Part shown: positions 10,423 through 57,596 of the stretch, piece after piece
How the letters are laid out: each line of letters opens with the position of its first letter
How positions within the stretch are numbered: position 1 is the stretch's first letter
Assembly: GCA_963981015.1 (NCBI GenBank)
Contig: CAXCCG010000004.1
Coordinates: forward strand, 1,720-65,719
Direction of reading: 5' to 3'
Length of the DNA stretch: 64,000 bases
DNA from: an uncultured Gammaproteobacteria bacterium
GTDB taxonomy: Bacteria; Pseudomonadota; Gammaproteobacteria; GCF-002020875
Notes under the pieces: generated by a model
What the model was told of the DNA's origin: nothing
The model's input: only the letters and a program-made list of their open reading frames with translations
Databases searched by the model: none
Position numbers and translations under genes: made by a program

Positions 10423-10839
10423 TTATTGTGTGTAGCCCTTGGTCACTCCACCGCCACTGGCGGCCCAGCTGAGGGGCGAAGCGGCAGTGGGTGTCAGAAT
10501 ATAAGTATCAGCAGCCACTACACCATTGGCTACATCGGGTGTAACGGTGACAATGCCATTACTGGTTGAGACTGAGTCTACAGCTCCGGTGACCGTTGTC
10601 TGGTTGGCGGGTACTCCATAACTTCCACCATCACAATCAGCCAGGTCTCGACGAATCTGATAACACTGCTCGATCCCGATTTTGAGTGGTTGGGCAGCGA
10701 GAACGACCTCAGAGTAGTAGGCGCGTGTGGTGTATTGGGTATAGGAGGGGATTGCGACTGAGGCCAGGATTGCAATAATAGCGATGGCTATAATCAGTTC
10801 AATGAGTGTGAACCCGCTCTGGTTCTGTGACTGTTCCAT
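10423..10839 (-). CDS. pilA: Type IV major pilin
   Basis: Prepilin cleavage site QSG|FTLIELIIAIAIIAILASVAIPSY; ATG 10839 preceded by a GGAG RBS. Confidence 0.88.
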   Translation of the reverse strand: MEQSQNQSGFTLIELIIAIAIIAILASVAIPSYTQYTTRAYYSEVVLAAQPLKIGIEQCYQIRRDLADCDGGSYGVPANQTTVTGAVDSVSTSNGIVTVTPDVANGVVAADTYILTPTAASPLSWAASGGGVTKGYTQ

Positions 10840-10987
10840 GTCGCTCTTCTCCTTAATATTAACTCGACTCCAAGTTTCTCCAGGACAGTACAATTTTCTT
10901 GAACTCAGAAGAAATTCGCACGGTTAGAAGTACCTTTTATGTGCAGAGATAATAGAGGTGAATTTAGGGCAAGGGAAGCAGTATTAG

Positions 10988-11003
10988 GTTACAAAATGTT
11001 ACA
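10988..11003 (-). promoter_or_regulatory. TGTAAC-N4-TGTAAC direct repeat upstream of pilA
   Basis: The + strand reads GTTACAAAATGTTACA, identical to 55223-55238. Confidence 0.55.
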
Positions 11004-24256: not shown

Positions 24257-24853
24257 TTATCCCATCCAGCGTTTGCGAATCCAGTAATCTACACTGACCA
24301 GGCGACCAGCACCGAGAGCAAACAGTGCCAGCAGCATGATCAGATAAGTGGCGGCCCACTCAGCGCCATTGTTGGAGATTACGAAGTTACCACTGGCGGT
24401 GAGCCACTCATAATTGCCATGCTCTTGCAGGATTGAGCGTGCAGCCTCCAGGCGCTCGCCAGCTTCTGTAATATCTGCAGGAGGGAAAGGGCTCATTTTA
24501 TCGGCAACAGCCTGCCAGCCATGTTCCAGATGGACAGAGAGGATGGCAACTGCCATGGTGGCCATCAGTGGTATGGAGATCCAGCGTACACCAAAGCCAA
24601 ACAGCAACATCACGGCTCCAACAACCTCGGAGGCTGTGGCCAGAAAGGCCATTAACCAGGGAAAGGGTAGTCCCAGTCCCCATTCGCTATTACCGAACCA
24701 CTGCACAATATCTTCAAATCCATTGAGTTTATTGGTGCCGGCGATCCAGAATACCGGTGCCAGGTAGAGCCTGAGTGCAAGTGGTGCGAGAAAGTCGAGG
24801 TTGCTGCGACTTCGGTCGAGCAGGTTTTGTAGTGAGGTGAGTAATTGTGTCAT
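24257..24853 (-). CDS. DoxX family membrane protein (HvfX-like)
   Basis: LALRLYLAPVFWIAG, WFGNSEWGLG and NNGAEWA; last gene of the DUF692 cluster. Confidence 0.85.
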   Translation of the reverse strand: MTQLLTSLQNLLDRSRSNLDFLAPLALRLYLAPVFWIAGTNKLNGFEDIVQWFGNSEWGLGLPFPWLMAFLATASEVVGAVMLLFGFGVRWISIPLMATMAVAILSVHLEHGWQAVADKMSPFPPADITEAGERLEAARSILQEHGNYEWLTASGNFVISNNGAEWAATYLIMLLALFALGAGRLVSVDYWIRKRWMG

Positions 24854-24870
24854 GAGGTGACTCTTGATCT

Positions 24871-25635
24871 CTATTGTGTAGTCTTATAGCCGAGTAATAT
24901 GCCCCGGCTCAGTAAATTATTGAGCATCTGTGCGCCCTGTTGTAGCAGGGTTTCATTCAGCTCCAGGCCAGATTCCTGGGCAATGGTGTCCATGGCCTGT
25001 TGTCCGCTGATGTTCGTTTCTGTATGAATCAGTTCCAGTAGTCGTGATACAAATGGAGAGGACTCCATAAAGTGGATTTCACCATCACGGTCGCGGTAGA
25101 CCACTAGGAAATGGGGCTGTGGAGAGGGGGCAAGCGGGATTTGATCCACTGCAATGGTGTGTACGGGGAAGCTGTACTGTAGTGACCGTACCAGTGGAGA
25201 GAGAACAGGGACCCCTTGTAGAGGGTCTAAACGTCTGTTTCCATACTCCCAGTCAGGCTCATCAGTAGAGATACTAAGCTCCAGTTCGACCCACTCATAG
25301 TGAGCAAGCTCCAACAGAAAAACAGGATCTTCAGGGTTTGAATGGCTACGATTCTGTAGAAACTCTAGGAACTCCATAGGAATTTCAGCGAAGTAGGGGG
25401 TGGTGCAGCGGTAGTCACGGATAAATTCAGCAACCAGACTGTTCCAGGCCGAGTCACTGTAGAGAGTACGGAGGACAGGAAACCCTGTGGAGAGGAAATC
25501 CTCGATGTTATTGTAAAAAAGCTCTTGATAGACACCCATTCTGCGACGTTCAACACCTTGTGGTAGCTCTGCTCCGTTCAGTCCACGAATATTGGCAGCA
25601 AACTGCTGCTGTAATTTTTGTGTCGGATTCAACAT
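24871..25635 (-). CDS. DUF2063 RiPP-recognition partner (HvfC/BufC-like); start 25635 or 25656
   Basis: RRMGVYQELFYNNI, TPYFAEIP and ELAHYEWVEL. Confidence 0.85.
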   Translation of the reverse strand: MLNPTQKLQQQFAANIRGLNGAELPQGVERRRMGVYQELFYNNIEDFLSTGFPVLRTLYSDSAWNSLVAEFIRDYRCTTPYFAEIPMEFLEFLQNRSHSNPEDPVFLLELAHYEWVELELSISTDEPDWEYGNRRLDPLQGVPVLSPLVRSLQYSFPVHTIAVDQIPLAPSPQPHFLVVYRDRDGEIHFMESSPFVSRLLELIHTETNISGQQAMDTIAQESGLELNETLLQQGAQMLNNLLSRGILLGYKTTQ

Positions 25636-25645
25636 CGGGTTCTCT

Positions 25646-26509
25646 TCAGGCTGCATGGTGCTCCTTTGCTGAGTTGTTAACAGCAGCCAAATCTTGATAG
25701 TGGTGAATTTGATTGATCTCCTCCAAAAGGGTCTCCATTGGGGGAATATTGAAGTCACGCTCCAGTAATGTGGGGACCTTGCCGTAGAGCTGGTAGGCTT
25801 GCTGTAACAGCTGCCAGACTGGGTCCCCGATGTCTGCACCATGGGTATCAATAATGAGGTCAGGGGCCTCATGGTAGTGACCGGCTACATGGAGATAGCG
25901 GATGCGGTCTCCTGCTATCGCATTCAGGTACTCGGTAGCATCATATTGATGGTTGACACTGTTGACGTAGATATTGTTAATATCCAGTAATAGCTCACAA
26001 CCAGACTCTTCCAGTACAGCATTGACGAATTCGATTTCACTCATTTCACTGCCAGCGGCAGCATAGTAGGAGATATTTTCTGCAACAAATGGACGTTGTA
26101 AGATATCTTCAATCTGTTGGATGCGGTTGACCACATGGTGGACCGCCTCTTCAGTGAAAGGGATTGGCATCAAGTCATAGAGATGCCCATCATCACCACA
26201 GTAGCTGAGATGTTCGCTGTAGATCTCTACTTCGTAGCGATCAAGGAAAATGCGCAACTGTTTGAGAAAGTCGGTATCCAGCGGGGTGTAGCCACCCAGG
26301 TTGAGTGAGAGCCCATGACAGATCAGAGGGACCTCGGCCACGGCCTGTTCAAGTGTTTTGATCAGCTTGCCGCCGATACCCATCCAGTTCTCTGGTGCAA
26401 CCTCCATAAAGTTGATTGCATCGGGCACACCCTGACTCAGGGCTCCTGCCATGGAGCGCCTGAGTCCGAGTCCGACACCAGAAATGGTGCGGTTTTCTGG
26501 TATCAACAT
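25646..26509 (-). CDS. DUF692 multinuclear non-heme iron oxidase (HvfB/BufB-like)
   Basis: GLGLRR, EVAPENW, HGLSL, SEHLS, ENISYY, LLDINNIYVN, HVAGH, DTHG and LLERD. Confidence 0.93.
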   Translation of the reverse strand: MLIPENRTISGVGLGLRRSMAGALSQGVPDAINFMEVAPENWMGIGGKLIKTLEQAVAEVPLICHGLSLNLGGYTPLDTDFLKQLRIFLDRYEVEIYSEHLSYCGDDGHLYDLMPIPFTEEAVHHVVNRIQQIEDILQRPFVAENISYYAAAGSEMSEIEFVNAVLEESGCELLLDINNIYVNSVNHQYDATEYLNAIAGDRIRYLHVAGHYHEAPDLIIDTHGADIGDPVWQLLQQAYQLYGKVPTLLERDFNIPPMETLLEEINQIHHYQDLAAVNNSAKEHHAA

Positions 26510-26512
26510 GGG

Positions 26513-26866
26513 TTAGGCCTTACCACCACACTTCCCTTCACCACACTTCCCTTCTTTACTCTTGGGAGCAGGCTTGGAACCACCGCATTTACCTTCACCA
26601 CATTTTGCCTCTTTGGTTTTGGCTCCACCGCAGCTGCCTTCACTGTTCTTGGAACCACCACAGCTACCCTCTTTGCTCTTGGAGCCACCACATTTGCCTT
26701 CACCACTTTTAGAGCCACCGCACTTACCTTCCATGCCGGCAATCTGATAACCGCCAGGCAGTTCAGTCAGGCCGAACGGGTTGGTGGCGGCCTCAACAGT
26801 GATGGCTGAAGAGAGGCTCAGTGCAATACCGGTTGCAATAGCAATGGAAGTTTTTCTGTTTTTCAT
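26513..26866 (-). CDS. Secreted Cys-repeat RiPP precursor (HvfA/oxazolin, bufferin-like)
   Basis: Sec signal peptide, NPF motif and eight E[GA][KS]CG repeats, directly upstream of DUF692. Confidence 0.88.
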   Translation of the reverse strand: MKNRKTSIAIATGIALSLSSAITVEAATNPFGLTELPGGYQIAGMEGKCGGSKSGEGKCGGSKSKEGSCGGSKNSEGSCGGAKTKEAKCGEGKCGGSKPAPKSKEGKCGEGKCGGKA

Positions 26867-27014: not shown

Positions 27015-27857
27015 TTAATGGCCTTTAACCGTAAGTCGCATTGAGAGGTCAATGGCATGGATATGTTTGGTCAGCGCACCAATTGAGATGAAATCGACAC
27101 CGGTATTGGCAATAGGATCAATCTGTTGTTGAGAAACGTTACCAGAGACCTCCAGTTTGGCACGCTGCTGGTTGAGTGCAACAGCCTGCTCCATTTCTGA
27201 AATGGAGAAGTTATCCAGCATAATGATATCGCTGCCCGCATTGATTGCCTGCTGCAGTTCATCAAGAGACTCTACCTCAATCTCCACCGTTTTACCGCTA
27301 GTCTGTTTCCTTGCCGCGTTGATTGCAGCTTCAATCGATCCACAAGCAGCAATATGGTTCTCCTTGATCAAAAATGCATCATAGAGGCCCAGCCGGTGAT
27401 TTTGTCCTCCACCACAGCGTACCGCATATTTTTGGGCCTCACGCAGCCCAGGAACAGTCTTGCGTGTATCAAGGATACGGGTGGTGCTCCCCTCAAGCTG
27501 CCTGATGTAGTGGCGGGTAGTGGTGGCAGTAGCAGAGAGGGTTTGTAGAAAATTCATTGCCGTGCGTTCCGCAGTAAGCAGTGTACGGGTATCTCCCTCA
27601 AGGGTCACCAGGGTCTCATTAGCCGCAGCCTCATCACCATCATTTAACTTCCAGTTTAAGATGATCTCAGGGTTGAGTTGGTGAAAGCAGGCGTTGAACC
27701 ATGCCTGACCACACAGCACCATCGGTTCCCGAGTGATGAGGGTAGCGGCTGAATGCTGTGATGCCGGAATCAGCTGTGCGGTGATATCACCTTCGCCAAT
27801 ATCCTCTTGCAAAGCCAGGGCAACACTGTGTTCTAATGAAGCGTTACTCAGGTTCAT
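27015..27857 (-). CDS. nadC: Quinolinate phosphoribosyltransferase
   Basis: ILDTRKTVPGLR, NHRLGLYD, IKENHI and IMLDNF. Confidence 0.95.
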   Translation of the reverse strand: MNLSNASLEHSVALALQEDIGEGDITAQLIPASQHSAATLITREPMVLCGQAWFNACFHQLNPEIILNWKLNDGDEAAANETLVTLEGDTRTLLTAERTAMNFLQTLSATATTTRHYIRQLEGSTTRILDTRKTVPGLREAQKYAVRCGGGQNHRLGLYDAFLIKENHIAACGSIEAAINAARKQTSGKTVEIEVESLDELQQAINAGSDIIMLDNFSISEMEQAVALNQQRAKLEVSGNVSQQQIDPIANTGVDFISIGALTKHIHAIDLSMRLTVKGH

Positions 27858-29337
27858 CAATTTTTAACTCCTGTTGAGTGGTGGCCTGTTGTTCAAGCAG
27901 TGCTGCACCATACTGAGTCATTGGTACCATTCCCTCAGTGACCGCTAACTGACGTACCTCCTCCGCAGTGATGCCATCATGCACATGAGACATCATTTCG
28001 GAAGAGACCTGCATCAGCTCATAGAGCGGGATACGGCCATGATAGCCACTCTGGTTGCAATGGTTACAGTGTGAGACAAGCTCGCTGGCACCATGACACT
28101 GTGTACAACTCTTACGGATTAGTCGTTGGGAGAGTACACCGAGCAGCGTATCCTTCAGGGTATAGGGTTCGACCCCCATATCCAATAATCGTGGAATGGC
28201 ACTGGGAGCATCGCCAGTATGAAGTGTGCTCAAGACTAAATGACCGGTATAGGCGCTTTGCAGTGCAATTCTTGCGGTTTCATGGTCACGGATCTCCCCA
28301 ATCAGAATAACATCAGGGTCGTGGCGCAGTACATGGCGAAGGTTGTTGGCAAAGGTGCTGCCAGCGGCTTCATTGATCTCAATCTGGCGAATACGATCCA
28401 GTTGATATTCAACAGGGTCCTCCAGGCTGATGATGTTGACATCGCGCTGTCTTAATTCGCGCATGGCAGCATAGAGGGTGGTTGATTTGCCTGATCCGGT
28501 AGGGCCGGTGACCAGAATCAGCCCGCTTTTCTGCTGCAGCATCTCACGAAAACAGGCTTCATCCCGGCTAAGAAAGCCGATGTCAGAGAGGGCACGTAGC
28601 CCACTTTGAGGATCAAGAATTCGAATCACAATACTCTCACCCTCCAGCACAGGCATAGAAGAGATACGTAAATCCACCTTTCGCCCCTGGTATGAGAAGT
28701 GGTGGGCCCCCCCTTGTGGGTGTCGCTGTTCAGCAATATCCATATTGCCGAGTATCTTGATACGGCTGACAATGGCAGGGTAGTGGTGTAGAGAGAGCTT
28801 TTTATTGGGTTCCAACACTCCATCGATGCGGTAACGGACCTCAACATACTGTTGCATCGGGCGCATATGAATATCTGATGCACGAGCAGTGATCGCTTCA
28901 TCGATCAGGTCAACCACTTGCTGGGAGGCTTCTAGCTGTTCATTGTTTGGCTCAATGTCAGGATTGTCAGTGGAGAGTATCAGTTGATGAGCGCTTTCAC
29001 GAGGCAGGCAGAGATGGAGTGGGGGCTTCTCTGCGGTAATATTGTAGAGGTGGTCACCGGTCTCATCGGTCTGGTGGTGCTGGGCCTCTGCCTGGAGCGT
29101 GGTACCGTTGGAGAAGATGATCCTGAAGGGAAAATTGCGGCCAGCGGGATAGGGCTTGTAGTAGTAGAAATGGCTCATCTCATCCATGGGTATGGTGTGT
29201 TGAGTATTACTGGAAGAGGGCATGAATTGCACTTGCCTCTTCTGTGAATCGATCTCCAATAGTTGACCGTAGAGAATCTCTCCACTGTTCAGGTGGCAGG
29301 CAAGAGGTCTGTTATTCATGCTCAAGCCAGCTCTCAA
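27844..29337 (-). CDS. GspE/PilB family assembly ATPase
   Basis: ASDIH, GPTGSGKST, EDPVEY, RHDPDVILIGEIRD, GHLVLSTLH and CxxC pairs. Confidence 0.9.
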   Translation of the reverse strand: MRAGLSMNNRPLACHLNSGEILYGQLLEIDSQKRQVQFMPSSSNTQHTIPMDEMSHFYYYKPYPAGRNFPFRIIFSNGTTLQAEAQHHQTDETGDHLYNITAEKPPLHLCLPRESAHQLILSTDNPDIEPNNEQLEASQQVVDLIDEAITARASDIHMRPMQQYVEVRYRIDGVLEPNKKLSLHHYPAIVSRIKILGNMDIAEQRHPQGGAHHFSYQGRKVDLRISSMPVLEGESIVIRILDPQSGLRALSDIGFLSRDEACFREMLQQKSGLILVTGPTGSGKSTTLYAAMRELRQRDVNIISLEDPVEYQLDRIRQIEINEAAGSTFANNLRHVLRHDPDVILIGEIRDHETARIALQSAYTGHLVLSTLHTGDAPSAIPRLLDMGVEPYTLKDTLLGVLSQRLIRKSCTQCHGASELVSHCNHCNQSGYHGRIPLYELMQVSSEMMSHVHDGITAEEVRQLAVTEGMVPMTQYGAALLEQQATTQQELKIDEPE

Positions 29338-32348: not shown

Positions 32349-35038
32349 GTGAATATACGCAATAGCGTGATCACCCTCTCGGTATTGATAGGATTGATAC
32401 TGCTCTTTGCAGGCGGGCATGTGCTTTCGTTACTGCAGCAGGTGGCTTCGATCAATCAGGAAAAGAGGGTGGTTGAGGCGGTCTACCACGCTTTTGAGAA
32501 GACACATCAAGGGGTGGAGGAGATCCTGCTATTGCAGAGTGATGCATCGATGGTGAGACAGTCTGAACTCAATGTTCAGACAATGGAGCAACTCCTCAAT
32601 CAAGCAATTCAAACCCGAACACACTCCTATCATCAAAACTTGGGTGAAATTCAATCTCACTGGAGAAGGTACAGTGGGCTGTTGAAAGAGCTATTATCAC
32701 TGGATCATGTGGTCCCGGATAACGATCAAGCACTCTTGGTTTTTATTGAATTGGTTGAACTGAAAGGGTTGGTTGAGAGTCAGTTTCACCAACTATTGAG
32801 CGCAGTTTCTGAGGATGAAGTGACACAGGTTGATACCATCCGGCAGCACCTGTTCTGGGGAATACTGCTCATAATAGTGATCGTAGTGCTGGTACTGCTC
32901 TATCTCTATTTCCGTATTGTTCCAGCGTTATCCAGACTCTCAACTACCTTGATGGAACTTTCCGGGAGTGGTGATTTGTCACAGGCACTGGAGCTGAAAG
33001 GCAATTCCAGAAAGGATGAGATCTACTTTCTCACCTACAGTTTTAACCATCTGATTGGTTCACTGCAGCAGAGTGAAAAGCTGTTGAAGAAGAGTAATTT
33101 CGCACAGGAGAAAAGTCTGCTGGAGATTCGCTCCATTCTTGAGGCGATTGATGAAGGGTTGGTTGTGTTGGATCAGGATGGAAACATTCTACAGGTTAAC
33201 CCCAAGTTGGCCCGGTTGACAGGAAAAGAGCCCCAGCAACTGCAGGGACAATCCTTCCATGTGCTGCTAAAGGGTGCGGATCAGATTGATCTCAGTGGGC
33301 TATTGACCACCTTTAAGAGCCGTATTCAGCGCATCCATGATGAGGATCATGAAAAATTTCACCAGACACTACAACAGGCCCCGGTTCCATTGATTGTGGT
33401 GGACCTGGATTCAATCAATGGAGAGTATACGGTTTTCCTTACAAGTCATGGCTTTGAGCAGCAATTTGGTTACTCTCAACAGGCACTACAGGGGCAGCCG
33501 CTGCGAAAGCTGATGCTTTCAGAGGAGTATGAGGCGATTCGGCAGAGGTTATTATTTGCAGGCACGGTGATGGGATCGCTGGATCAACATCGCTACTATT
33601 GGCGGCGTGCAAATGGTGGCGAATTGGTATCAGAGGTTAAATTTCTGAGGATAGAGTGTGGTGGTAACAGCCATGTGTTGATACAGCTTGAATCGACAGA
33701 GAACATTGATCAGGAACTGCTTAGAATCACACCCTATGGACGCTTGATGGTTGATCAGGGGCTTGCTACGGGCAGTGATATGGGTTGGGAGCTGATGCAT
33801 CAGGATGGAACGTTAATTCCTGTCCATATGTCGGGCTCTCCACTCTATCGGCAGCAGAATGAGGAGCGCCAATTGTCAGGTGCAGTCTTCGTAATCAGTG
33901 ATATGCGGGATATTCTCAGTGCAGAGCAGGCTCGCCGTTCCAATAAGGCAAAGGATGACTTTCTGGCCTCAATGAGCCATGAATTGAGAACCCCTTTAAG
34001 CTCAATAATTGGTAATAGTGAGATTTTGAGTGAGAGTCATATGTCTCCGGATCAACGCAAGATGTTGCATTCGATTGAGATCTCAGGCCGGGCACTGTTG
34101 TCCTTGATCAACGATATACTCGACTTCTCCAAGATTACTGCCGGTAATTTTAAAGTTGAGCAAAGTAGTTTTGCTATCCATAGTTTGATTGAGGAGATAC
34201 AACATATCTTCACCTCTCGGTTTGTCGATGCAGGGCTCCGTTTTGATCTGGATATTCGTGAACCCTTAGGGGAAATTGTGGTGGGTGATGGCCGGCGTAT
34301 TGGACAGATTTTAATCAATATTCTGAGCAAGGGAGGGTACAGCTCAATATCTGGGTGGAGAGAGAGGAGGGGACACTCCATTTTGCGGTGATTGATGAGG
34401 GAATCGGGATGTCTCCAAAGGTTTTGGAACGGCTCTTCTTACCTTTTGAGCAGGCGGAAAACACCATATCCCGCCGTTTTGGTGGGACAGGGTTGGGGCT
34501 TCACATCTCAAAAATATTGGCCGAATTGATGGGTGGCACCCTTGAGGTATCCAGTGTAGAGAGGCGCGGATCACGTTTTGAGCTTATTCTTCCCTATGTG
34601 GAAGGCGTTAAAGAGGCGCTGGCTTCTCAATCAAGGGAGGCGTTGCCGCTACAACTGAAAGGACATGTTCTGATTGCTGAAGATACACCGGAGCTGCAAC
34701 TGCTTGAACGTCGTATTCTCGAGTCGATTGGATTGACCGTAGAGATTGCAGTAAACGGACGGGAAGCGATCGAAAAATGGAGTGGTAACACCTTTGATCT
34801 GATTTTGATGGATATGCAGATGCCGGAGATGGATGGTATTGAAGCGACCTCTAAATTGCGTGAAATGGGGTGTAAGATTCCAATTGTTGCGCTGACCGCA
34901 AACGTAATGGAAAAGCATCGCAAGCAGTTCGGGGAGGCCGGTGGAAGTGGGTTTCTGGAAAAACCGATTGATCGTCAGGTGTTAATTGAGCGACTACAAC
35001 AGGAGCTTGGACAGGCATCTAAGATTATCCGGGGATGA
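32349..35038 (+). pseudogene. Membrane hybrid histidine kinase (HAMP-PAS-HisKA-HATPase-REC) split by a frameshift near 34330
   Basis: ORF 32349-34391 ends just after QILINILS. HATPase (DEGIG, GGTGLGL) and REC continue in another frame to 35038, and the N box NAIKFT is missing. Confidence 0.8.
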
Positions 35039-35160: not shown

Positions 35161-36672
35161 TTACCGGGTGAGCAGAACCGTTGCTGCCGCACGTTCATCT
35201 CCGTAGAGTTGGCTGAGAATGGGCTCGATTGCTTCAGCACTGAGTGGGCCTTCAATCAACTGCTGTTGTCCCAGCTGTTCAATGATCAGGAAGGGGTTGG
35301 CGCTGCGTTCCAGAAGTCGCTCAAGCTGTTTCACCGATAAGGGCTGAGAGAGGTAGTGATGCTGTAATCTGTTTTTACCACTCAGTGCAGAGATCGCCTT
35401 ATAGCGATTCTCTCCAAACAGCTCCTGAATAAGATCAATCAGGTGATCTCCATCCATTTTCTGTAGCGACCCTATATCAGCCATCTGTTGAATCAGCTCA
35501 TCCTGGTAGGCACTACCCTCCAGTAGGGTTGACGCAGCCGTTGCGTCAATTGAGTTTTGCAGGTAACTCTGCTGCAGCTCATTATTGCCGAGTAGTGCGC
35601 TGAGTGCATCATAACGGTCGGCACGGGTGAGTGACCCCAGTAGTTGCAAAGCCTCATCCGGGTTGAGTGGTGACTGGAGTGCCTGATGATCGGTAAACAG
35701 CCCGATCATCTCATCTTGATAGGCCATTCCATCCAGTAGAGTACGAGCCTCGGAGAGCCCCAGCGGAAGTTGCAGATAACCTTGTTGTTGGCGATTCTCG
35801 CCGAGCAGGGATTTGACAACATTGAAGCGGTCGGTGTGTTGAATATCCTGCAGTAGTTGTTGGCTTTCAGTGGCGGTCAGTGGTGCTGCAAAGAGGCCAC
35901 GGTTGGTAAAGTGTCGAATAATCTCTTCGGGGAGGGCACTTCCCCGGACGAGCTGTAAAGCATCCGCATGGGAGAGCGGAAGCGCAAGATAATCTTGCTG
36001 TTGCTGGTTCATCCCCAATAGCGCCTTAACGGCATCGTGACGCCCCATCGGACCCTGTTGACCGATAATCTGTTCCGCCTCTTTGACGGTGAGAGCTGTC
36101 GTGAAGAGTGTTCGGTCTGCCATATAACGGATCATTCCTGACCGATCATGGCTCTGATTGAGTAGTTGGTTGGCCTCTTTTACCCCAAAAGCAGAGAGTC
36201 CGTAGTTTTGCGCAAGGCGATTACTGCCGAGTAATGCACGTAGCGGCTGATCATATCGGCGACTCCCGGCAGCCCCCATGAGTGTCTGTATTTGATCCGC
36301 ATTCATGTTGGGGCTTGGAACCCCATAGTCTGCAAGATATTGAATAATCTCCTCACGTTGTGGACCGACCCCGGATAACAGAGTGTTAATCTGCTCTGTA
36401 GAGAGAGGCTCAGAGATCAGCTTGTGATGAGAGCGATTATTTCCAAACATTGATTTAATCGCGTAGTAACGGTCACTGTTGGAGAGGCCTTGCAGCATGT
36501 TAAGCCCTTGATCAAATGAAAAGGTTTGGTTTTCCCAGATAGAATCAGCAAATTCAGAGATAGAGGCCCTGCGCTCATAACCTGTTTTGCCTTCCAGTAG
36601 ATCAACTTCTGCACCATTTACAGTGTGTGCTGTGGCGATCATCAACAGTAGCGGGGAGAGTAGTTTGTTCAT
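35161..36672 (-). CDS. Secreted helical-repeat hypothetical protein
   Basis: Signal peptide and about six imperfect ~70-aa repeats of the type RYDALSALLGNN..QSYL. Confidence 0.75.
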   Translation of the reverse strand: MNKLLSPLLLMIATAHTVNGAEVDLLEGKTGYERRASISEFADSIWENQTFSFDQGLNMLQGLSNSDRYYAIKSMFGNNRSHHKLISEPLSTEQINTLLSGVGPQREEIIQYLADYGVPSPNMNADQIQTLMGAAGSRRYDQPLRALLGSNRLAQNYGLSAFGVKEANQLLNQSHDRSGMIRYMADRTLFTTALTVKEAEQIIGQQGPMGRHDAVKALLGMNQQQQDYLALPLSHADALQLVRGSALPEEIIRHFTNRGLFAAPLTATESQQLLQDIQHTDRFNVVKSLLGENRQQQGYLQLPLGLSEARTLLDGMAYQDEMIGLFTDHQALQSPLNPDEALQLLGSLTRADRYDALSALLGNNELQQSYLQNSIDATAASTLLEGSAYQDELIQQMADIGSLQKMDGDHLIDLIQELFGENRYKAISALSGKNRLQHHYLSQPLSVKQLERLLERSANPFLIIEQLGQQQLIEGPLSAEAIEPILSQLYGDERAAATVLLTR

Positions 36673-36901: not shown

Positions 36902-36906
36902 CCTAA

Positions 36907-37085
36907 GGAACCTCTGAACAAGTCTGGGTAATTTGAATTACGTCCATAGCGTCCAAGATCAAGGCGAAGATCGCAGCCAATAGCAGGCTATTAGCAAGAT
37001 TTTCAACCGAGGAACGAGGTCGAGCAACGAAGATATTGGGCGCTATGGGCGTTAGACATTTACACATGACTTATTCAGGGGTTCC
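36907..37085 (+). mobile_element. MITE copy 2 (179 bp)
   Basis: Same TIRs as copy 1, with a CTAA duplication. Confidence 0.85.
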
Positions 37086-37147
37086 CTAAGCCTCTACCCC
37101 TTCTACACGACTCCAATTCAATGGGAGCCAAAGTGGGCCGAATAGTT

Positions 37148-37187
37148 GAAATGTAACGAAATGTAACGAAATGTAACAAAATGTAAC
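37148..37187 (+). repeat. Four tandem 10-bp repeats (GAAATGTAAC x3, then AAAATGTAAC)
   Basis: Read directly from the sequence; lies ~30 bp upstream of the putative DGR promoter. Confidence 0.9.
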
Positions 37188-37219: not shown

Positions 37220-37249
37220 TTGCAAAAGCCATCCTCCTGACACTAGAAT
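37220..37249 (+). promoter_or_regulatory. Putative sigma70 promoter of the DGR operon
   Basis: TTGCAA-18 bp-TAGAAT. Confidence 0.45.
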
Positions 37250-37332: not shown

Positions 37333-38994
37333 ATGACCAACCAACCAACCAACCAACCAACCAACCAACCAACCAACCAACCAACCAACCGAAATAATTC
37401 TCGTTTAGCAGAGCTAAACCAACGATTCAGGCAGTTCTCTCTTCCGCTCCTCCTTGCTGCAACCCTCACCGCTTGTGGCGGTAGTGATGAAGCCGTCGTT
37501 ATCCCCCCCGCCTCCAGCAGCGGTCAGGTACAGAAAGGGCCATACCAGATCGGCTCCACCGTCACCGCCTACCGACTCGATGGTTCCGGTAACCGCACCG
37601 GCGAGAGTGTCACCACCCAGACCACCGACAACCTCGGTAGCTACAGCCTCAACACCGACTGGAGCGGGGCCACCGAAATCGAGGCGAGTGGCAACTTCCT
37701 GGATGAGAGCAGCGGCAATGTCACCACCACCCCGCTCACCCTCAGTGCCGTGGTCGATCTGCAGATGGGGGATACCACCAACATCAACCTCTTCACCCAC
37801 CTCCACGGTACGCGAACCAAAAACCGCATGGCCCTGTTCGGAATCACCACCGCCAGCAGCCTCGCCGCAACCGACCTCAAAAACAGTTACGGGCTACAGC
37901 TGAGCAATAGCACCCAACCCCACCAGCTCGACCTCACCGATGGCAGTGATTCCACCTCCAAATCAGACAACGCCCTGTTGCTGCTCTACTCCGGCGCACT
38001 GGTCACCGGCAATCAGGATGGCTCAGGCACCCTGCAGCAGAGCGTACTCAACAACCTCGCCACCGACTTTGGAGATAACGGTGCCATCGACGGGGTAGGC
38101 AACAGCGCCCATCTCAGTACCCGCACGGCTGCCCGTACCACCAGCATCGACACCCTGCGTACCAACCTGCACAACAACAGTGCCGGTGCCATCACCGATG
38201 CCCCGGCAGAGGCGGACCTGACCGTGCGCCCCTACGCCCTCAAGGCAGGCTTCCTCAACGATACCGGCATCACCCTCTGCGGGGACTACGCCTACGGGGT
38301 CACCGGCAGTGGCAACCACCACAACAACGTCGACTGCACACTCGCCACCGATGTCGATGGTGACCCGGTACCTGATGGGCAGGATGCCGATTATGGACGG
38401 GACAAAACGGCCAACGACAACAGCGATGGTCACGCCGGATTCAGCTTCACCAAACTCGACAGCAACGGTGACCCACTAACGGACCAGAGTGTCGCCTACA
38501 ACGTCACCCCCTGGTCCTGCGTACGCGACAACGTCAGCGGACTGATCTGGGAGGTCAAAACCGACACCGCAGGGCGCCACAACAAGGATGACACATTCAA
38601 CTGGTACAACAGCGACACCACCACCAATGGCGGTAATGCCGGTAGCGCCGATGACGATGGCAATATCTGCTTCGGCTACGATGTCACCGAGGCAGCCAGC
38701 TACTGCAACAGCCAGGCCTACACCGCACGGGTCAACAGCGCCACACTCTGTGGGGCCAGTGACTGGCGCATGCCCACCAGAGAGGAGTTACGCTCCATTG
38801 TCGCCTATGACCGCACTATTCCGGCCATCGACACCGACTACTTCCCCAACACGGTAGCCAACTGGTTCTGGTCGGCCTCGCCGAATGCCGGTATTAGTGA
38901 CAGCGCCTGGATCGTCAACTTCTACTATGGCAACGTCAACAGTGCCAATAAGTCCAATGGATTTCGGTTGCGGTTGGTGCGCGCCGGACAGTGA
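37333..38994 (+). CDS. DGR target 1: lipoprotein with a C-terminal DUF1566/Lcl (C-type-lectin-like) domain
   Basis: GAGGGA RBS, lipobox LTAC, VRDNVSGLIWEVK and DWRMPTREEL; the C-terminus is encoded by VR1. Confidence 0.92.
   Translation: MTNQPTNQPTNQPTNQPTNRNNSRLAELNQRFRQFSLPLLLAATLTACGGSDEAVVIPPASSSGQVQKGPYQIGSTVTAYRLDGSGNRTGESVTTQTTDNLGSYSLNTDWSGATEIEASGNFLDESSGNVTTTPLTLSAVVDLQMGDTTNINLFTHLHGTRTKNRMALFGITTASSLAATDLKNSYGLQLSNSTQPHQLDLTDGSDSTSKSDNALLLLYSGALVTGNQDGSGTLQQSVLNNLATDFGDNGAIDGVGNSAHLSTRTAARTTSIDTLRTNLHNNSAGAITDAPAEADLTVRPYALKAGFLNDTGITLCGDYAYGVTGSGNHHNNVDCTLATDVDGDPVPDGQDADYGRDKTANDNSDGHAGFSFTKLDSNGDPLTDQSVAYNVTPWSCVRDNVSGLIWEVKTDTAGRHNKDDTFNWYNSDTTTNGGNAGSADDDGNICFGYDVTEAASYCNSQAYTARVNSATLCGASDWRMPTREELRSIVAYDRTIPAIDTDYFPNTVANWFWSASPNAGISDSAWIVNFYYGNVNSANKSNGFRLRLVRAGQ
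37336..37390 (+). repeat. Tetranucleotide SSR (CCAA)13, 55-nt tract, in frame (ON state)
   Basis: Perfect repeat starting immediately after the ATG and encoding TNQP repeats. Confidence 0.95.
38865..38994 (+). repeat. DGR variable repeat VR1
   Basis: 130 nt colinear with TR; 12 mismatches at TR adenines plus one G->C in the last sense codon. Confidence 0.96.
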
Positions 38995-39016: not shown

Positions 39017-39409
39017 ATGAGACACCTGCAACGCTACCCCATCTGGCGCGATGCCAACCGCCTGCTGGTTGAGATCGAGCGTGCCGTGCGCGGCTTTCCC
39101 CGTTACCACAAATACACCCTGGGCAGTGAGCTGCGCCGACAGGCGATGACCATCTGTCGGCTGATATCCCGTGCGATCAGTGACAAGCAGCGACAGTATC
39201 ACCACCTGGAACGGCTGAAGCTTGCGGTCGATGACCTCAAGACCCAGATTCAGCTTGCCAAAGAGCTGCAGGTCTTTTCCAGTTTTACCCAATTTCAGAC
39301 GCTATCGGAACTTGCCGTAGCCGTCGGCAGACAGAGCGGGGGGTGGGCCAAACGGTTGATCAGCAACAACCCGAAGTCCCCTTCTGTAACCGAAGGGGGC
39401 GTGTGTTGA
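39017..39409 (+). CDS. avd: DGR accessory variability determinant (Avd, four-helix bundle)
   Basis: FPRYHKYTLGSELR and VGRQSGGW; basic 130-aa protein between VR1 and TR. Confidence 0.88.
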   Translation: MRHLQRYPIWRDANRLLVEIERAVRGFPRYHKYTLGSELRRQAMTICRLISRAISDKQRQYHHLERLKLAVDDLKTQIQLAKELQVFSSFTQFQTLSELAVAVGRQSGGWAKRLISNNPKSPSVTEGGVC

Positions 39410-39546
39410 ACTCACTGTGCGCCCGTACCCCCCTTGTACGACGAGGGGATGGTGATACAGACCTTGCTACCAGCAGGATGGAAGGTCGGTGGGGAAGAGG
39501 GAATTCATCCCCTCTTTCTGTGAAGTGTATGGGTTATTCCTGTCCT

Positions 39547-39676
39547 GTTCTGGTCGGCCTCGCCGAATGCCAATAATAGTGACAACGCCTGGATCGTCAA
39601 CTTCAACAATGGCAACGACAACAATGACAATAAGTCCAATGAAAATCGGTTGCGGTTGGTGCGCGCCGGAGAGTGA
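39547..39676 (+). ncRNA. DGR template repeat (TR)
   Basis: AAT/AAC-rich template copy of both VRs, with 35 adenines in the variable part, between avd and RT. Confidence 0.96.
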
Positions 39677-41159
39677 GCTGGCGACGCTCTTCAATTTTCC
39701 CGCACTCTGGCAGGCCTATATCACCTGTCGCAAGGGAAAACGGGGGAGTCGCAATACCCAGCACTACGAGATCAGCCTGCTGGATCGACTGATTGATACG
39801 CTGGATGCGCTGAAAACAGCCCGATGGACCCCCTCCCGCTCTGTACTCTTTGTCGTTACCCGCCCCAAGATGCGCGAGATCCACGCAGCAGACTTTTCAG
39901 ACCGGGTGGTTCACCATCTGCTGGTGCCCCGGCTGGAACGGCTCTATGAGCCAACCTTTATTCACGACAGCTACTCCAACCGAAAAGGCAAAGGGACCCA
40001 TGCAGCCGTAGAGCGACTGCAGCACTTTATGCGCAAGGTGACCCGTAATCAGACCCGGCCAGCCCACTACCTTCAGTTGGACATCGCTAACTTCTTCAAT
40101 ACGATTGATCGCCCTACGCTCTGGAAACAGCTACAACATCGACTGCGCAAGGCGCAACAGAGGGGGGCAGAGGATAGAGGAGTGACACCACAAGAGCAGC
40201 AGGAACTGCTCTGGCTCACCCACCGTATCCTCAGGCAGAATCCCACAGAGCATGCCCTATTGCGAGGTTCCCCCGATGAATTTGCCCGGATCCCTCAGCA
40301 CAAAAGGCTCTCGGCAGCACCAGCTGACAAAGGGCTTCCCATCGGCAACCTGACCAGCCAGTTCTTCGCCAACGTCTATCTTAACGAACTGGACCAGTTC
40401 ATCAAGCACACCCTCAAGGCGGACTACTATCTTCGCTATGTGGATGATTTCATTCTACTGCACCAGAACCCGGAGCAGCTGGAGCAGTGGAGAAAAGAGA
40501 TTGCCGATTTTCTTCAGCAGAGACTACAGCTGAAGCTGCGCCCTCAACAAATCCTCAAACCGGTTACCGATGGGGCCGACTTCCTCGGCTACATTGTGCG
40601 ACCCGACTACCGTCTGGTACGCCGAAGAGTGGTCGGGCACCTGAGAGAGCGGTTACAGCACCTTCAGCAACAGCTGATAGAGAGAACAAAAAAAGGGACC
40701 ACCCTGCGCTTAAAGCAGGCACACCGACAACAGCTACATGCCATGCTGGCAAGTTATCTCGCCCATATCCGTCATGCCAGTAGCCACAACCTGCTACAGA
40801 CACTATGGAGAGAGTTTTCGTGGCTGGATCATGTTTTTCAGCGGCCAGAGAGTGCGACAGCAACACTCCTTCCCCGTTGGAAACCAGAGCGTGTCAGCTC
40901 CTTCGCCAGTCAGCAACGCTGGTTTAAACAGAGACTGCCCGGCTACCACCTGCTGATCCAGCGTGGTAGTGCATTTCTGGTCGCGAATCATGCAGAAGAG
41001 GAGGGCAGAGAGATCCCACTTAACAGCCTTAAATCGATACGAACCAACCTGCGTAACCGACAGATCCCACACGCCTTTATTGCCGAAGAGGGGTACCTGA
41101 AAGGGGGGCTCAAACAGCGGGTTCTGCGACTGCTCTGGCAACCCACACCAATGATCTGA
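39639..41159 (+). CDS. DGR reverse transcriptase with a C-terminal MutS-I-like extension (start uncertain; frame open from 39489)
   Basis: CRKGKR, REIHAADFSDRVVHH, QLDIANFF, the DGR signature GLPIGNLTSQ, YLRYVDDF and DFLGY. Confidence 0.95.
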   Translation: MKIGCGWCAPESELATLFNFPALWQAYITCRKGKRGSRNTQHYEISLLDRLIDTLDALKTARWTPSRSVLFVVTRPKMREIHAADFSDRVVHHLLVPRLERLYEPTFIHDSYSNRKGKGTHAAVERLQHFMRKVTRNQTRPAHYLQLDIANFFNTIDRPTLWKQLQHRLRKAQQRGAEDRGVTPQEQQELLWLTHRILRQNPTEHALLRGSPDEFARIPQHKRLSAAPADKGLPIGNLTSQFFANVYLNELDQFIKHTLKADYYLRYVDDFILLHQNPEQLEQWRKEIADFLQQRLQLKLRPQQILKPVTDGADFLGYIVRPDYRLVRRRVVGHLRERLQHLQQQLIERTKKGTTLRLKQAHRQQLHAMLASYLAHIRHASSHNLLQTLWREFSWLDHVFQRPESATATLLPRWKPERVSSFASQQRWFKQRLPGYHLLIQRGSAFLVANHAEEEGREIPLNSLKSIRTNLRNRQIPHAFIAEEGYLKGGLKQRVLRLLWQPTPMI

Positions 41160-53345: not shown

Positions 53346-55064
53346 TTATGTGGGCTCTTTCAGAATGGAGGGGGTGATAAAAATCAATAACTCACCTTTA
53401 CCATCAGTCTCACGCTGACTCTGAAAGAGCTGCCCGATAATCGGGAGATCGGCAAGCAGAGGAACCCGATTGACCGCATCGGTTTTTCTCTCCTCATAGA
53501 TCCCTCCAATTACCAAGGTCTCCCCGTCTCCTATCATAACCCGTGTTTTCACTTCACGGGTATCTACGCTAGGTTCGCAATTGTCACAGAAGATGGTGCC
53601 GACGGCATCCTTTTTTACCTGTAACGTCAGGATGATATGGTGATCCGGTGTGATTTGAGGGGTAACCCGTAACTCCATCACCGCATCTTTGAAGCTTACA
53701 TCCGTGCCACCACTGAGTGTATCTGAACGATAGGGGATCTGCACACCCTGTTGAATCGTCGCTTCATAGCCATTAGAGGTGATAATGCGAGGGTTGGCTA
53801 CGATTTCAGTCTTGCCTTCGAGTTGTGCTGCCGAGAGTTCAAGATCAATCAGGTTGCCACTGGATAATTTTGCCAGTGTTAATCCAATACTTCCTGCGGC
53901 AGAGGTGATCGGTAGATTGACCGCAAGACGGCTATTTTCGCCACCAATTCCTGGACTCTGGCCAGATAGAGCGCTATTGGTTGCGTTGTTGCTTCCTGAT
54001 AGAGAGAAACCCCATTGCTGTTGAGCTGGTGACATGGCAGTAATGCCCAGTCGAGCGCCCAGTTCACTGCTGAAGTCATTGGCGGCAATGACAATACGTG
54101 ATTCGATCAGTACCTGTTTTGTGGGCCGGTCTAATGCGGAAATCAGTTGTTGGATCTGTTCCAGCTTCTCTTGCTGCTCACGAATAATAAGTGTATTGGT
54201 GCGTTCATCAATGCCAAGGGCGCCTTGTGGGGAGAGTAGACCGCTATTATCGGAACTCTCCAGGCTTTTCTTCAGATCGGCGGCGTGTGCATAGTGTAGC
54301 GGTATCATCACGGTCTCTAGGGTGACTGCTTGTGGGGGCTGCTCGATGGAGGGGGCGGTGATTGGAATTTCCTCTTTTGAGGGTGGTGAGACAATTAGAA
54401 TACCGTTCTGTTCTGAGAGTTGTAGTTGATTCTGTTCAATGATCAGGTCAAAGGCGACCCGCCAGTCAACCTGCTGAAGTTGCATCGAGGTGGTCCCGCT
54501 TGGTTCACCATTGAGCAACAGATTTTGACCTGCGGCGTGTACAATTTTTTTCAGGGCTGAGGCGATAGGTTCCTGGTCCAGGGAGAGGTCAATGGTTGTC
54601 GATTTAGCAGTTTGCACTGAGGTAGGGTCAGAAAATGAGAGCAGCAGTTTTTTCTCCCGTTGCTGGAGCTGGTGAGGCATGGGGTGCTGGAGTGAGAACA
54701 GCAGTCGTGTTTTGTCCGCACTGGAGGCGATTTGTATCGCCTCAACAGGGGGCGATACCGGGGGAAGGGGGGATGAAAGCTTGGCAACGGTGGCGTTGAT
54801 ATCCATCACCAACTGCTTACCCTCTGCGAGAAGATAAAGTTGGGGTTGTGGGGCGGGTTGGTTAAAGTGAAGTGTGAATGTGTTTTGTAGTCCACCAGCA
54901 TCGGCGGTGCCCTGAAACTGAACTTGGGTCAATTGATTCAATGGCACTTTATCGGAAAGAGCAACAGTGGGTAAAAACAGGGAGAGCAGTAAAATGAAGA
55001 GCAGATTAAGATACACCACAGAGTCTCCAGTGATCGATCGGTAATTGGCAACTCTAAGGTTCAA
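53346..55064 (-). CDS. pilQ: Type IV pilus secretin (start uncertain)
   Basis: DERTNTLII, QVLIESRIV, LRVTPQIT, VPLLADLP and ELLIFITP; immediately upstream of aroK. Confidence 0.88.
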   Translation of the reverse strand: MNLRVANYRSITGDSVVYLNLLFILLLSLFLPTVALSDKVPLNQLTQVQFQGTADAGGLQNTFTLHFNQPAPQPQLYLLAEGKQLVMDINATVAKLSSPLPPVSPPVEAIQIASSADKTRLLFSLQHPMPHQLQQREKKLLLSFSDPTSVQTAKSTTIDLSLDQEPIASALKKIVHAAGQNLLLNGEPSGTTSMQLQQVDWRVAFDLIIEQNQLQLSEQNGILIVSPPSKEEIPITAPSIEQPPQAVTLETVMIPLHYAHAADLKKSLESSDNSGLLSPQGALGIDERTNTLIIREQQEKLEQIQQLISALDRPTKQVLIESRIVIAANDFSSELGARLGITAMSPAQQQWGFSLSGSNNATNSALSGQSPGIGGENSRLAVNLPITSAAGSIGLTLAKLSSGNLIDLELSAAQLEGKTEIVANPRIITSNGYEATIQQGVQIPYRSDTLSGGTDVSFKDAVMELRVTPQITPDHHIILTLQVKKDAVGTIFCDNCEPSVDTREVKTRVMIGDGETLVIGGIYEERKTDAVNRVPLLADLPIIGQLFQSQRETDGKGELLIFITPSILKEPT

Positions 55065-55222
55065 TCACTCAGTTGTCGTATCACTCGAAAGCAGTGCTAT
55101 GCTTCTGTACACTGCAGACTCTCGAGTCTGTCCCTCGGACAACTGTAGAATAATCTTTTAAGAATGTGCCTTACTATAAGATGGCACTGATATTACCCGA
55201 TATTTTTTAGAAAAAACTGCTT

Positions 55223-55238
55223 GTTACAAAATGTTACA
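55223..55238 (-). promoter_or_regulatory. TGTAAC-N4-TGTAAC direct repeat between pilQ and tsaC
   Basis: Identical 16-mer to the one upstream of pilA. Confidence 0.55.
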
Positions 55239-55277: not shown

Positions 55278-55850
55278 ATGCATAGTGGTCCCTATACACC
55301 ATGGAAAATGAGGCAGTTTACCTCCCTGTTTAGAGCGGGAGCAGTTTTTGCCTATCCGACAGAGTCCATTTTTGGTTTGGGATGTGATCCATGGAATCTC
55401 GCAGCGGTGGAGAGAGTCTGGTCTATCAAGCAGCGTGCGCCTGAAAAAGGTTTGATACTGGTAGCCTCAAATCCTCAGCAGTTACGTCCCTGGATTGCAC
55501 TCAGGCATGCTGCGGATTGGCAGCGGTTGTCAGCGTCATCGAGACGCCCAACGACCTGGTTGGTCCCGGCTGCTGCAGGCGCACCCTGGTGGATCAAAGG
55601 GGCTCACCCTAAAATCGCAGTGAGATTGACCACTTTCTCTCCGATGGTGCAGTTATGTGAGACGGTGTCATCGGCAATTGTCTCAACCAGTGCGAATTTT
55701 GCGGGATTTTCTCCGCTGAGAAATACGGTGTCTGTTTATAAAGTAATGAGTAATCAATTAGATATGATTATCTCAGGAGAGACAGGTAGTGAGACGATTC
55801 CCAGTGAGATTCGGGACTTCTACTCTGGAGAAGTGTTGCGATCTAATTGA
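55278..55850 (+). CDS. tsaC: Threonylcarbamoyl-AMP synthase (YrdC/Sua5)
   Basis: AYPTESIFGLGCDP, KQRAPEKGLIL and STSAN. Confidence 0.88.
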   Translation: MHSGPYTPWKMRQFTSLFRAGAVFAYPTESIFGLGCDPWNLAAVERVWSIKQRAPEKGLILVASNPQQLRPWIALRHAADWQRLSASSRRPTTWLVPAAAGAPWWIKGAHPKIAVRLTTFSPMVQLCETVSSAIVSTSANFAGFSPLRNTVSVYKVMSNQLDMIISGETGSETIPSEIRDFYSGEVLRSN

Positions 55851-57260: not shown

Positions 57261-57596
57261 TTAGATATCAATGCAGCACTCAACCCCATATTTCTCTTCG
57301 ATGTAGCGTGACAGCACCCGTTGCTGCTCCTTAGAGAGTTGTACGCAGAGGAGAATCAGTTGTGCAAGCTCATCCTCCTCGGCAAAGAAAAACGCGGTAG
57401 GTACCTGTAGTGTATCAGAGAGTTTTGCAATCGTCTGTTCACCAGGTCGATGACGGTTATTCTCATACTGATTGATGCGAGGGCTGGCTGTGGCAGGGTC
57501 AATGCCGATCTCTAGCCCCAGCTGCTTTTGTGAAAGGCCACATTGCTGACGGGCTTGTCTCAGGCGTGTGCCGAAAACTACGTGTGGATCACACAT
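57261..57596 (-). CDS. XRE family HTH regulator
   Basis: RLRQAR..GLSQKQLG..ASPRINQYE. Confidence 0.85.
   Translation of the reverse strand: MCDPHVVFGTRLRQARQQCGLSQKQLGLEIGIDPATASPRINQYENNRHRPGEQTIAKLSDTLQVPTAFFFAEEDELAQLILLCVQLSKEQQRVLSRYIEEKYGVECCIDI

Follow-up and report, generated by a model that had tools for sequence, protein, structure and literature searches.

A direct repeat of ten-nucleotide period shared by pilA, pilQ and a diversity-generating retroelement in an uncultured gammaproteobacterium, and an OmpR-family system as its probable reader

We analysed a window of 64,000 nucleotides (C4:1720-65719; GenBank contig CAXCCG010000004.1 of assembly GCA_963981015.1) from the genome of an uncultured gammaproteobacterium, here called G000 (2.48 Mb in 130 contigs, 98% complete). 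The window carries an array of the hexamer TGTAAC, repeated every 10 nucleotides, upstream of the target gene of a diversity-generating retroelement (DGR), and the same direct repeat upstream of the type IV pilin gene pilA and of the secretin gene pilQ. The motif is rare, periodic and placed between genes; it is conserved at three promoters in the genus, those of pilA, pilQ and a response-regulator gene on contig C87, and it co-occurs with that regulator. It is very probably a conserved transcription-factor operator, and the sequence data point to an autoregulating two-component system with the C87 regulator as its most likely reader. That this OmpR-family system binds TGT(A/T)ACA-N3-TGT(A/T)ACA and controls pilA and pilQ as well as the DGR target is, in our judgement, likely.

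The comparison set consisted of 41 genomes: G000, 14 relatives of the same genus and 26 genomes outside the genus. The weight matrix used for scoring was derived from 23 sites, all of them in the relatives and none in G000.

Results

A rare direct repeat with a ten-nucleotide period

The element from which the analysis started is the following.

37148-37187, no strand assigned: four-unit array of 10-nucleotide repeats, GAAATGTAAC (Tandem Repeats Finder, 4.0 copies)

On the plus strand the TGTAAC hexamers begin at 37152, 37162, 37172 and 37182, the last one ends at 37187, and the end of the array is 145 nucleotides from the ATG of the DGR target at 37333. A 16-mer, GTTACAAAATGTTACA, occurs at 10988-11003 before pilA and again at 55223-55238 before pilQ. 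An earlier note on this DNA had described TGTAAC repeats of 10-bp period as common to the three upstream regions; its coordinates, the 16-mer and the distances of 145, 148 and 158 nucleotides were all reproduced. The unit is TGTAAC-(G/A)AAA in the DGR array and TGTAAC-ATTT at pilA and pilQ.

The pattern TGTAAC-N4-TGTAAC was matched five times in the window, against 0.00 times in 100 shuffles, and ten times at eight loci in the whole of G000, where by our own estimate about 0.24 matches are expected from 1080 hexamers on both strands. The spacing is specific. Same-strand TGTAAC pairs in G000 number ten at a distance of 10 and at most three at every other distance up to 60. Likewise, TGTAACA-N3-TGTAACA gave seven exact and six one-mismatch matches, while nine other spacers gave 0-1 and 0-3 respectively, and pairs of mixed orientation were rare (one one-mismatch locus, on C24). 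When G000 was searched with the matrix, 15 matches scored at least 20; five column-shuffled matrices gave 0-3 matches at 18 or above. The 15 matches fall into 11 loci, of which ten lie outside any open reading frame (ORF) of at least 80 amino acids, in a genome where ORFs of at least 120 amino acids make up 88% of the sequence. Among the other genomes, the exact 17-mer motif was found in 6 of the 14 of the same genus, all six bearing the regulator, and in 1 of the 26 outside it; a reversed control pattern of the 17-mer had no match in the 41 genomes. The earlier note had allowed that the motif might prove frequent and randomly scattered, and the genome scan found it rare and non-randomly placed. 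Direct half-sites one helical turn apart are what OmpR/PhoB-family operators have, and the assignment to that type, also made in the earlier note, is strengthened by the candidate cognate regulator described below.

A miniature inverted-repeat transposable element (MITE)-like sequence of about 186 bp, with inverted ends CTAGGGAACC...GGTTCCCTAG, is present at 36903-37090 of the window; dozens of full or partial copies occur in the genome, many of them at contig ends. A MITE lies 56-60 nucleotides from the DGR array and about 130 nucleotides from the site on C87, and it might be supposed that the repeats are not regulatory at all and belong to a mobile repeat family or to a chance microsatellite. 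The copies of the MITE end at about 37090, however, and leave the motif outside, for which reason the MITE was rejected as a carrier of the motif. Moreover, the flanks of the motif sites are unrelated, and orthologous promoters have kept the sites amid diverged surroundings. A non-regulatory origin is thus highly improbable.

Conserved sites at pilA and pilQ

The features of the two pilus loci are listed here.

10423-10839, minus strand: pilA, type IV (PpdD-like) prepilin of 138 amino acids (Pfam N_methyl and Pilin; best NCBIfam match, prepilin peptidase-dependent pilin)
10949-10954, minus strand: candidate pilA -10 hexamer TATTAT, 32 nucleotides downstream of the site
10987-11003, minus strand: pilA site TGTAACATTTTGTAACC, 148 nucleotides upstream of the pilA ATG
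53346-55064, minus strand: pilQ secretin gene (Pfam Secretin, Secretin_N and AMIN), followed by aroK and aroB
55190-55195, minus strand: candidate pilQ -10 hexamer TAATAT, 26 nucleotides downstream of the site
55222-55238, minus strand: pilQ/tsaC intergenic site TGTAACATTTTGTAACA, matrix score 24.5 toward pilQ and 16.8 toward tsaC
55278-55850, plus strand: tsaC (Sua5/YciO/YrdC family), divergent from pilQ, its start 40 nucleotides from the site

The secretin scored 381.9 with the PilQ model TIGR02515, above the cut-off, and also matched the HofQ model (277.8). Its ORF starts with a TTG at 55064, 158 nucleotides from the site, and the signal peptide begins about 45 nucleotides further in, so that the true start is probably a later GTG near 55019.

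A pilA gene was matched in 12 relatives, and upstream of it sites in gene orientation were found in G000 and in six of these (G001, G003, G006, G008, G009 and G012); no pilA site was found in G002, G004, G010, G011, G013 and G014. The pilQ count covers 14 relatives and accepts up to three mismatches in gene orientation. Such sites are present in G000 and in eight relatives (G003, G005, G006, G007, G008, G009, G012 and G013) and were not found in G001, G014, G002, G010 and G011; G004 (84% complete), whose contig begins 154 nucleotides upstream, was left out of the judgement. The sharing of the motif by pilA and pilQ, described in the earlier note, therefore extends across the genus. A hexamer of the form TAnnAT follows the motif at 25-27 nucleotides in 9/9 pilQ promoters and at 32-33 nucleotides in 6/7 pilA promoters. 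A scan with the sigma-70 consensus detected no full promoter at pilA or pilQ, which fits activator dependence.

The pilQ site lies between two divergent genes, and its main effect could be to repress or occlude tsaC and not to control pilQ. The divergent arrangement is kept in G000 and at the pilQ loci of 12 of the 14 relatives, including genomes that have neither regulator nor motif, and in every genome bearing the site it stands 0-40 nucleotides from the tsaC start codon, a typical position for a repressor and a point that counts against pilQ as the regulated gene. On the other hand, the site is always in the orientation of pilQ, and its distance to the pilQ-side hexamer is fixed in all nine genomes. 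The matrix score is higher toward pilQ, and pilA has the same site without a divergent partner. Furthermore, tsaC is a housekeeping gene of tRNA modification whose position is kept where motif and regulator are missing. Orientation, the fixed spacing to the -10-like hexamer and the parallel with pilA thus favour pilQ as the gene regulated, and it seems unlikely that tsaC is the principal target, although a protein bound at the pilQ site may at the same time occlude the tsaC promoter. The idea that the motif marks pilQ loci without tsaC was dropped, since tsaC was found in those genomes too.

A candidate regulator with a site before its own gene

An exact site at C87:4389 precedes a gene with Response_reg and Trans_reg_C domains, which is followed by a HisKA/HATPase kinase gene. 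The regulator has 236 amino acids and the kinase 514; residues 1-307 of the kinase, its sensor region, matched no Pfam family. G000 encodes five OmpR-family regulators in total, and the other four are PhoB/PhoR-, OmpR/EnvZ-, BaeR/BaeS- and sortase-system-like. Orthologues of the C87 regulator (51-64% identity) were found in 10 of the 14 same-genus genomes, while G002, G004, G010 and G011 gave only paralogue-level matches (42-44%). A search of further genome contigs with the regulator returned no orthologues; its matches were generic paralogues of the OmpR family, largely from Firmicutes and none above 43% identity.

The promoter of the regulator has a conserved layout. Its ATG lies at L011:2955 (region 2955-2968), a TATAAT stands 7 nucleotides upstream, and the motif ends 21 nucleotides before the TATAAT. 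This order of motif, 21 nucleotides, TATAAT, 6 to 8 nucleotides and ATG is kept in G000 and in 9 of the 10 orthologue-bearing relatives (L038-L047), G014 being the exception; no -35 element is conserved. The arrangement suggests an activator-dependent promoter that gives a leaderless mRNA. A layout of this kind recurs at the sodium:alanine symporter gene (C41) and at the DGR target of G006. Arrays of three to four units also stand at the regulator promoters of G001, G005 and G007, and a copy number of four is thus not confined to the DGR. In addition, every genome with a pilA or pilQ site has the regulator, and the well-assembled genomes G002, G010 and G011 have neither the regulator nor such sites.

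The motif might instead be bound by another protein, for example the OmpR/EnvZ-like regulator on C33, in which case the site on C87 would indicate a cascade and not autoregulation. The half-site is similar to several OmpR-family sites (OmpR, WalR, RpaB and RstA), and the recognition helices of the C33 and C87 proteins are alike. Nevertheless, paralogue-level matches (42-44%, the C33 protein of G000 itself standing at 42%) occur in G002, G010 and G011, which have no motif at pilA or pilQ, and the motif with its 21 nucleotides and TATAAT goes with the C87 orthologues in particular (9 of 10 relatives). A different binder therefore seems improbable, and the C87 regulator is retained as the probable reader.

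Several observations weigh against so simple an assignment. In G014 the regulator is present and no recognisable site was found at the regulator gene, pilA or pilQ; G001, which bears the regulator, has no pilQ site, and G013, which also bears it, has no pilA site. The distances from motif to -10-like hexamer (21, 26 and 32-33 nucleotides) are not all in helical phase. Other pilus genes of G000 (the ATPase, pilC and the PilV/W-like minor pilin genes on C9) have no site. The site before the G000 regulator carries a flipped central base, TGTTACA, which makes the polarity of the half-site ambiguous. It should also be said that the same-genus genomes are close relatives, so the counts of sites and orthologues are not independent.

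Polarity of the motif

TGTTACA is the reverse complement of TGTAACA, so no polarity can be taken from the hexamer by itself. Read along the gene, the conserved sites have the form TGTAACA-TTT-TGTAACA; the G000 regulator site reads TGTTACA-TTT-TGTTACA and retains both the position and the TTT spacer. This suggests that either A or T is accepted at the central position (compare TGTWAH of WalR) and that the spacer would carry the polarity. On the plus strand the DGR array reads TGTAAC-GAAA/AAAA, and by the polarity of its spacer it faces a divergent ORF of 503 amino acids. The earlier note had given the same gene-relative orientation for all three upstream regions. At the level of the hexamer this is correct; the spacer units differ, and for the DGR array the matrix prefers the opposite strand.

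The DGR locus and its array

The following features belong to the locus.

35161-36672, minus strand: divergent ORF of 503 amino acids, family not recognised, a rival target of the array with nine orthologues in the genus
37220-37249, plus strand: candidate sigma-70 promoter TTGCAA-18-TAGAAT, a consensus match only (one found against 1.1 in shuffles)
37333-38994, plus strand: DGR target, a predicted lipoprotein (lipobox LTAC) with an Lcl_C (C-type-lectin-like) domain; variable repeat (VR) at 38865-38994
39017-41159, plus strand: DGR core, with avd at 39017-39409, the template repeat (TR) at 39547-39676 and the reverse transcriptase (RT) gene at 39489-41159 (Pfam bAvd and RVT_1)

TR and VR are 130 nucleotides long and 90% identical, and they differ where TR has A and VR another base. 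The locus encodes three Lcl_C proteins, Avd and the RT. With an RT, Avd, an adenine-specific TR/VR pair and a target of C-type-lectin fold, it is a genuine DGR. A second DGR RT of G000 is encoded at C77:5246-6595 and is 58% identical to that of the window. Another DGR, with an RT 47% identical, is present in G006, where the target is a protein of 1419 amino acids with Calx-beta and Lcl_C domains. On the strand of this target a site, TGTAACAAATTGAAATA, was found with two mismatches, 23 nucleotides before a TATGAT beside the start codons; by our own estimate such a site is expected about 0.001 times by chance in a one-strand window of 150 nucleotides.

The link of the array to the DGR target is weaker than the links of the motif to pilA and pilQ. 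The following points speak against it. First, the DGR RT is present in only 3 of the 15 genomes of the genus; the DGR is accessory, and a link of array and DGR cannot be ancestral. Secondly, the array is 55 nucleotides from the sole candidate -10, in a promoter match that is itself at chance level, and would sit at about -104 to -68. Thirdly, its matrix scores are 23.6, 23.4 and 20.4 on the minus strand and 13.4, 13.3 and 10.8 on the plus strand, a difference of about 10 bits in favour of the strand that points away from the target. Finally, the contig with the second DGR (C77, 10.8 kb) has no site scoring 12.5 or more. It could be, then, that the motif is operative at pilA, pilQ and the regulator gene, and that the array instead controls the 503-amino-acid ORF or is a repeat on the border of the inserted DGR cassette that is inert or has expanded recently; we consider this doubtful, if by no means far-fetched. 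In the upstream DNA examined for the nine orthologues of the 503-amino-acid ORF no site reached a score of 10, and that ORF was accordingly rejected as a conserved target of the array, from which 475 nucleotides and the MITE separate it. In the independent DGR of G006, the motif is close to the promoter and in the orientation of the target. Also, for WalR/VicR the strand of a site does not predict regulation (PMC4168254). Taken together, we regard control of the DGR target by the four-repeat array as somewhat more probable than the contrary, and it is plausible that the DGR target is a species-specific recruit of the regulon.

Consequently the earlier proposal that the diversified proteins are co-regulated with pili stands in part: the motif in the target promoter of the G006 DGR speaks for it, and the absence of a site on C77, the reversed polarity and the more distant candidate promoter speak against it. 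The further idea of pilus-associated adhesins did not hold. The target is a predicted lipoprotein with a lipobox and has no N_methyl match, the five N_methyl matches of the genome all lie away from it, and the regulon includes genes that clearly have nothing to do with pili.

Sequencing-run data were used as assembled contigs, not raw reads. Six metatranscriptome runs contain 77% of the sampled words; at the DGR locus the RNA-library contigs cover 37401-38911 only and give no information on control. Contigs break at the 10-nucleotide array, and a 40-nucleotide contig of the array with one changed letter, present in two DNA runs, is not interpretable.

Two further observations concern the target gene itself. 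A perfect (ACCA) tract of 13.8 copies lies right after its ATG, at 37336-37390, and encodes (TNQP)n before the signal peptide of the lipoprotein; contigs in all four runs compared break there. As gain or loss of one ACCA unit shifts the frame, slipped-strand on/off switching is possible. Within the VR, the DNA-run contig X7 carries an extra A>G and a 1-nucleotide insertion at 38956-38961, which fits natural VR diversity.

The wider regulon and the type of pilus

Beyond the window, strong sites were found in G000 upstream of radC and two prepilin-like genes, divergent from coaBC (C20); of rfaH (C2); of the sodium:alanine symporter gene, divergent from a hybrid kinase gene (C41); of hsdM (C82); of a PIN-toxin module, where the site lies within the 3' end of hsdR (C23); of infA (C16); and of a response-regulator diguanylate cyclase gene (C19). 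Two more stand at contig ends (C22 and C24). Among the relatives, rfaH again lies next to an exact site, and other exact sites adjoin genes for flagellin, sugar-nucleotide enzymes, small regulators of XRE type and an outer-membrane beta-barrel protein. The predicted theme of the regulon is envelope and cell surface, not pili alone.

As for the XRE-type genes, two small helix-turn-helix genes of this kind have the exact motif about 15-20 nucleotides before their start (L022 353-786 in G013 and L029 1082-1517 in G008), and the one in G013 is followed by a sigma-70-family factor. The homologue in G000, at 57378-57593 of the window, is weak (33% identity) and has no site.

The pilus set of G000 is reduced. 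One GspE/PilB-like (T2SSE-family) ATPase gene beside nadC and one pilC were found (window 27015-29337), and genome searches gave no match to PilM or to TfoX. We take this set to be closer to the Ppd/Hof competence pseudopilus of enterobacteria than to a pilus for motility. The gene radC is apparently in one operon with the two prepilin-like genes (G000:C20:20507-24746). Both comEC and dprA are present and neither is among the matrix matches scoring 12.5 or more, and for this reason a competence regulon stays a minority reading. In its boldest form, an RstA-like system would be a master switch for a reduced competence-type pseudopilus (PpdD-like pilin and HofQ-like secretin), radC and minor pilins, restriction-modification, toxin-antitoxin, rfaH and DGR lipoproteins recruited independently in at least two species. 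We hold this to be improbable. If it were true, a single environmental signal would induce a hypervariable surface receptor along with DNA uptake or adhesion, replacing Sxy/CRP-S control.

Other features of the window

Two features lie apart from the subjects above. At 24257-26866, on the minus strand, there is a cluster of the HvfA/HvfB/HvfC/HvfX type, for an oxazolone/thioamide-modified peptide metallophore (a ribosomally synthesised and post-translationally modified peptide, RiPP). A hybrid histidine kinase is apparently split, with 32349-34391 (PAS and HisKA) overlapping 34355-35038 (the rest of HATPase_c and the receiver); a frameshift or a sequencing error could account for this.

Discussion

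A possible mechanism and its meaning

From the sequences we infer the identity of the binder, activation rather than repression, the promoter elements and the control of the DGR target as follows. By analogy with RstA and PhoB, a phosphorylated dimer of the C87 regulator would bind two repeats head-to-tail. At its own promoter the class-II-like position of the box would lead to positive autoregulation and a leaderless mRNA. At pilA (box 32-33 nucleotides before the -10-like hexamer) and pilQ (25-27 nucleotides), binding would likewise bring about activation. As the accessory DGR cassette of the window carries four repeats before its first target gene, the diversified lipoprotein would probably be expressed under the same signal.

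A dimer of an OmpR-family protein on tandem repeats is a textbook mechanism, and in our reading only the coupling to DGR targets is out of the ordinary; for the rest, regulator and operator are of the OmpR-family class. To our knowledge, little is established on the regulation of chromosomal DGR target genes, and at the level of titles the literature gave nothing pertinent on DGRs together with response regulators and pili, nor on the OmpR family and direct repeats at pilA. The locus offers a concrete link for DGR regulation: the operator is defined and is borne by two independent DGR cassettes, and a regulator with its kinase can be named as candidate. It would also give a likely function, the control of pilin and secretin genes, to a two-component system conserved across an uncultured genus, and it presents an RstA-box/HLR1-type operator apparently reused for a quite different regulon.

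Comparison with known regulators and operators

In general, winged-helix regulators of the OmpR/PhoB type act on direct repeats that overlap the -35 region or lie before it, and the present motif is a direct repeat of that kind. The pho boxes have a period of 11 bp. Within the family, the closest solved DNA-binding domains to that of the C87 regulator are 2mlk, 4nhj and 2naz, all of RstA (E values 7e-15 to 2e-14). The RstA-DNA structure has base contacts by Arg199, Val203 and Arg207 (PMC4117788), and Arg/Val/Arg of helix alpha-3 is conserved in the C87 regulator (R..DV..SR in the alignment). The RstA box, TACATNTNGTTACA, of the RstA/RstB system of E. coli and Klebsiella is reported to be bound head-to-tail by two domains (PMC4117788, PMC13276309). 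In both systems the operator is a tandem head-to-tail repeat of 10-bp period. This box occurs in G000 seven times exactly at five loci (three times in the DGR array, and on C20, C22, C41 and C87), against one match of a control pattern; on the minus strand the DGR array consists of three overlapping exact matches and is the sole RstA-box locus of the window. The sites at pilA, pilQ and in most relatives do not match the box, as they read TGTAACA, with AACA in place of TACA. Type 1 fimbriae, which are surface fibres, are reportedly under the control of RstAB (PMC13276309), which adds to the likeness; here, instead of asr or csgD, the predicted targets are the genes of a type IV pilin and of a secretin, and DGR targets. 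The proteins differ too, the C87 regulator scoring 136.2 bits against the RstA cut-off of 330 and the kinase 119.6 against the RstB cut-off of 478.

The operator of cyanobacterial RpaB is a second close parallel. HLR1, (G/T)TTACA(T/A)(T/A)-N2-repeat, serves for activation in positions centred around -50 and for repression close to the transcription start (PMC6525291). Its unit and 10-bp period are those of GTTACAAA-AT-GTTACA here, the motif being read on its other strand, and the consensus is fitted by the 16-mer at both 10988-11003 and 55223-55238. The C87 regulator, however, scored 188.8 bits against an equivalog cut-off of 330, and the regulon is unrelated. For WalR/VicR the operator is TGTWAH-N5-TGTWAH with a period of 11 bp; its half-site TGTWAH(A) fits TGTAACA and TGTTACA exactly (PMC4168254), but at a period of 11 the present motif gave 0 exact and 0 one-mismatch matches. 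Among NCBIfam models, OmpR was the best match of the C87 regulator (202.4 bits, below the cut-off of 331), whereas the pair on C33 is the better OmpR/EnvZ of the genome (277.9 for OmpR and 252 for EnvZ) and a separate PhoB-like pair is present as well. Two-component control of pilin genes is otherwise known from PilS/PilR, of the NtrC family and dependent on sigma-54, which differs from the C87 system in regulator class and in promoter type; the genome encodes five sigma-54 activators. Thus the element resembles the operators of RstA and RpaB, while the proteins, by their model scores, fall below the cut-offs of every named system. Overall, pilA and pilQ appear to be conserved targets of an unassigned RstA/OmpR-like two-component system, which is the best candidate for the protein that binds the repeat.

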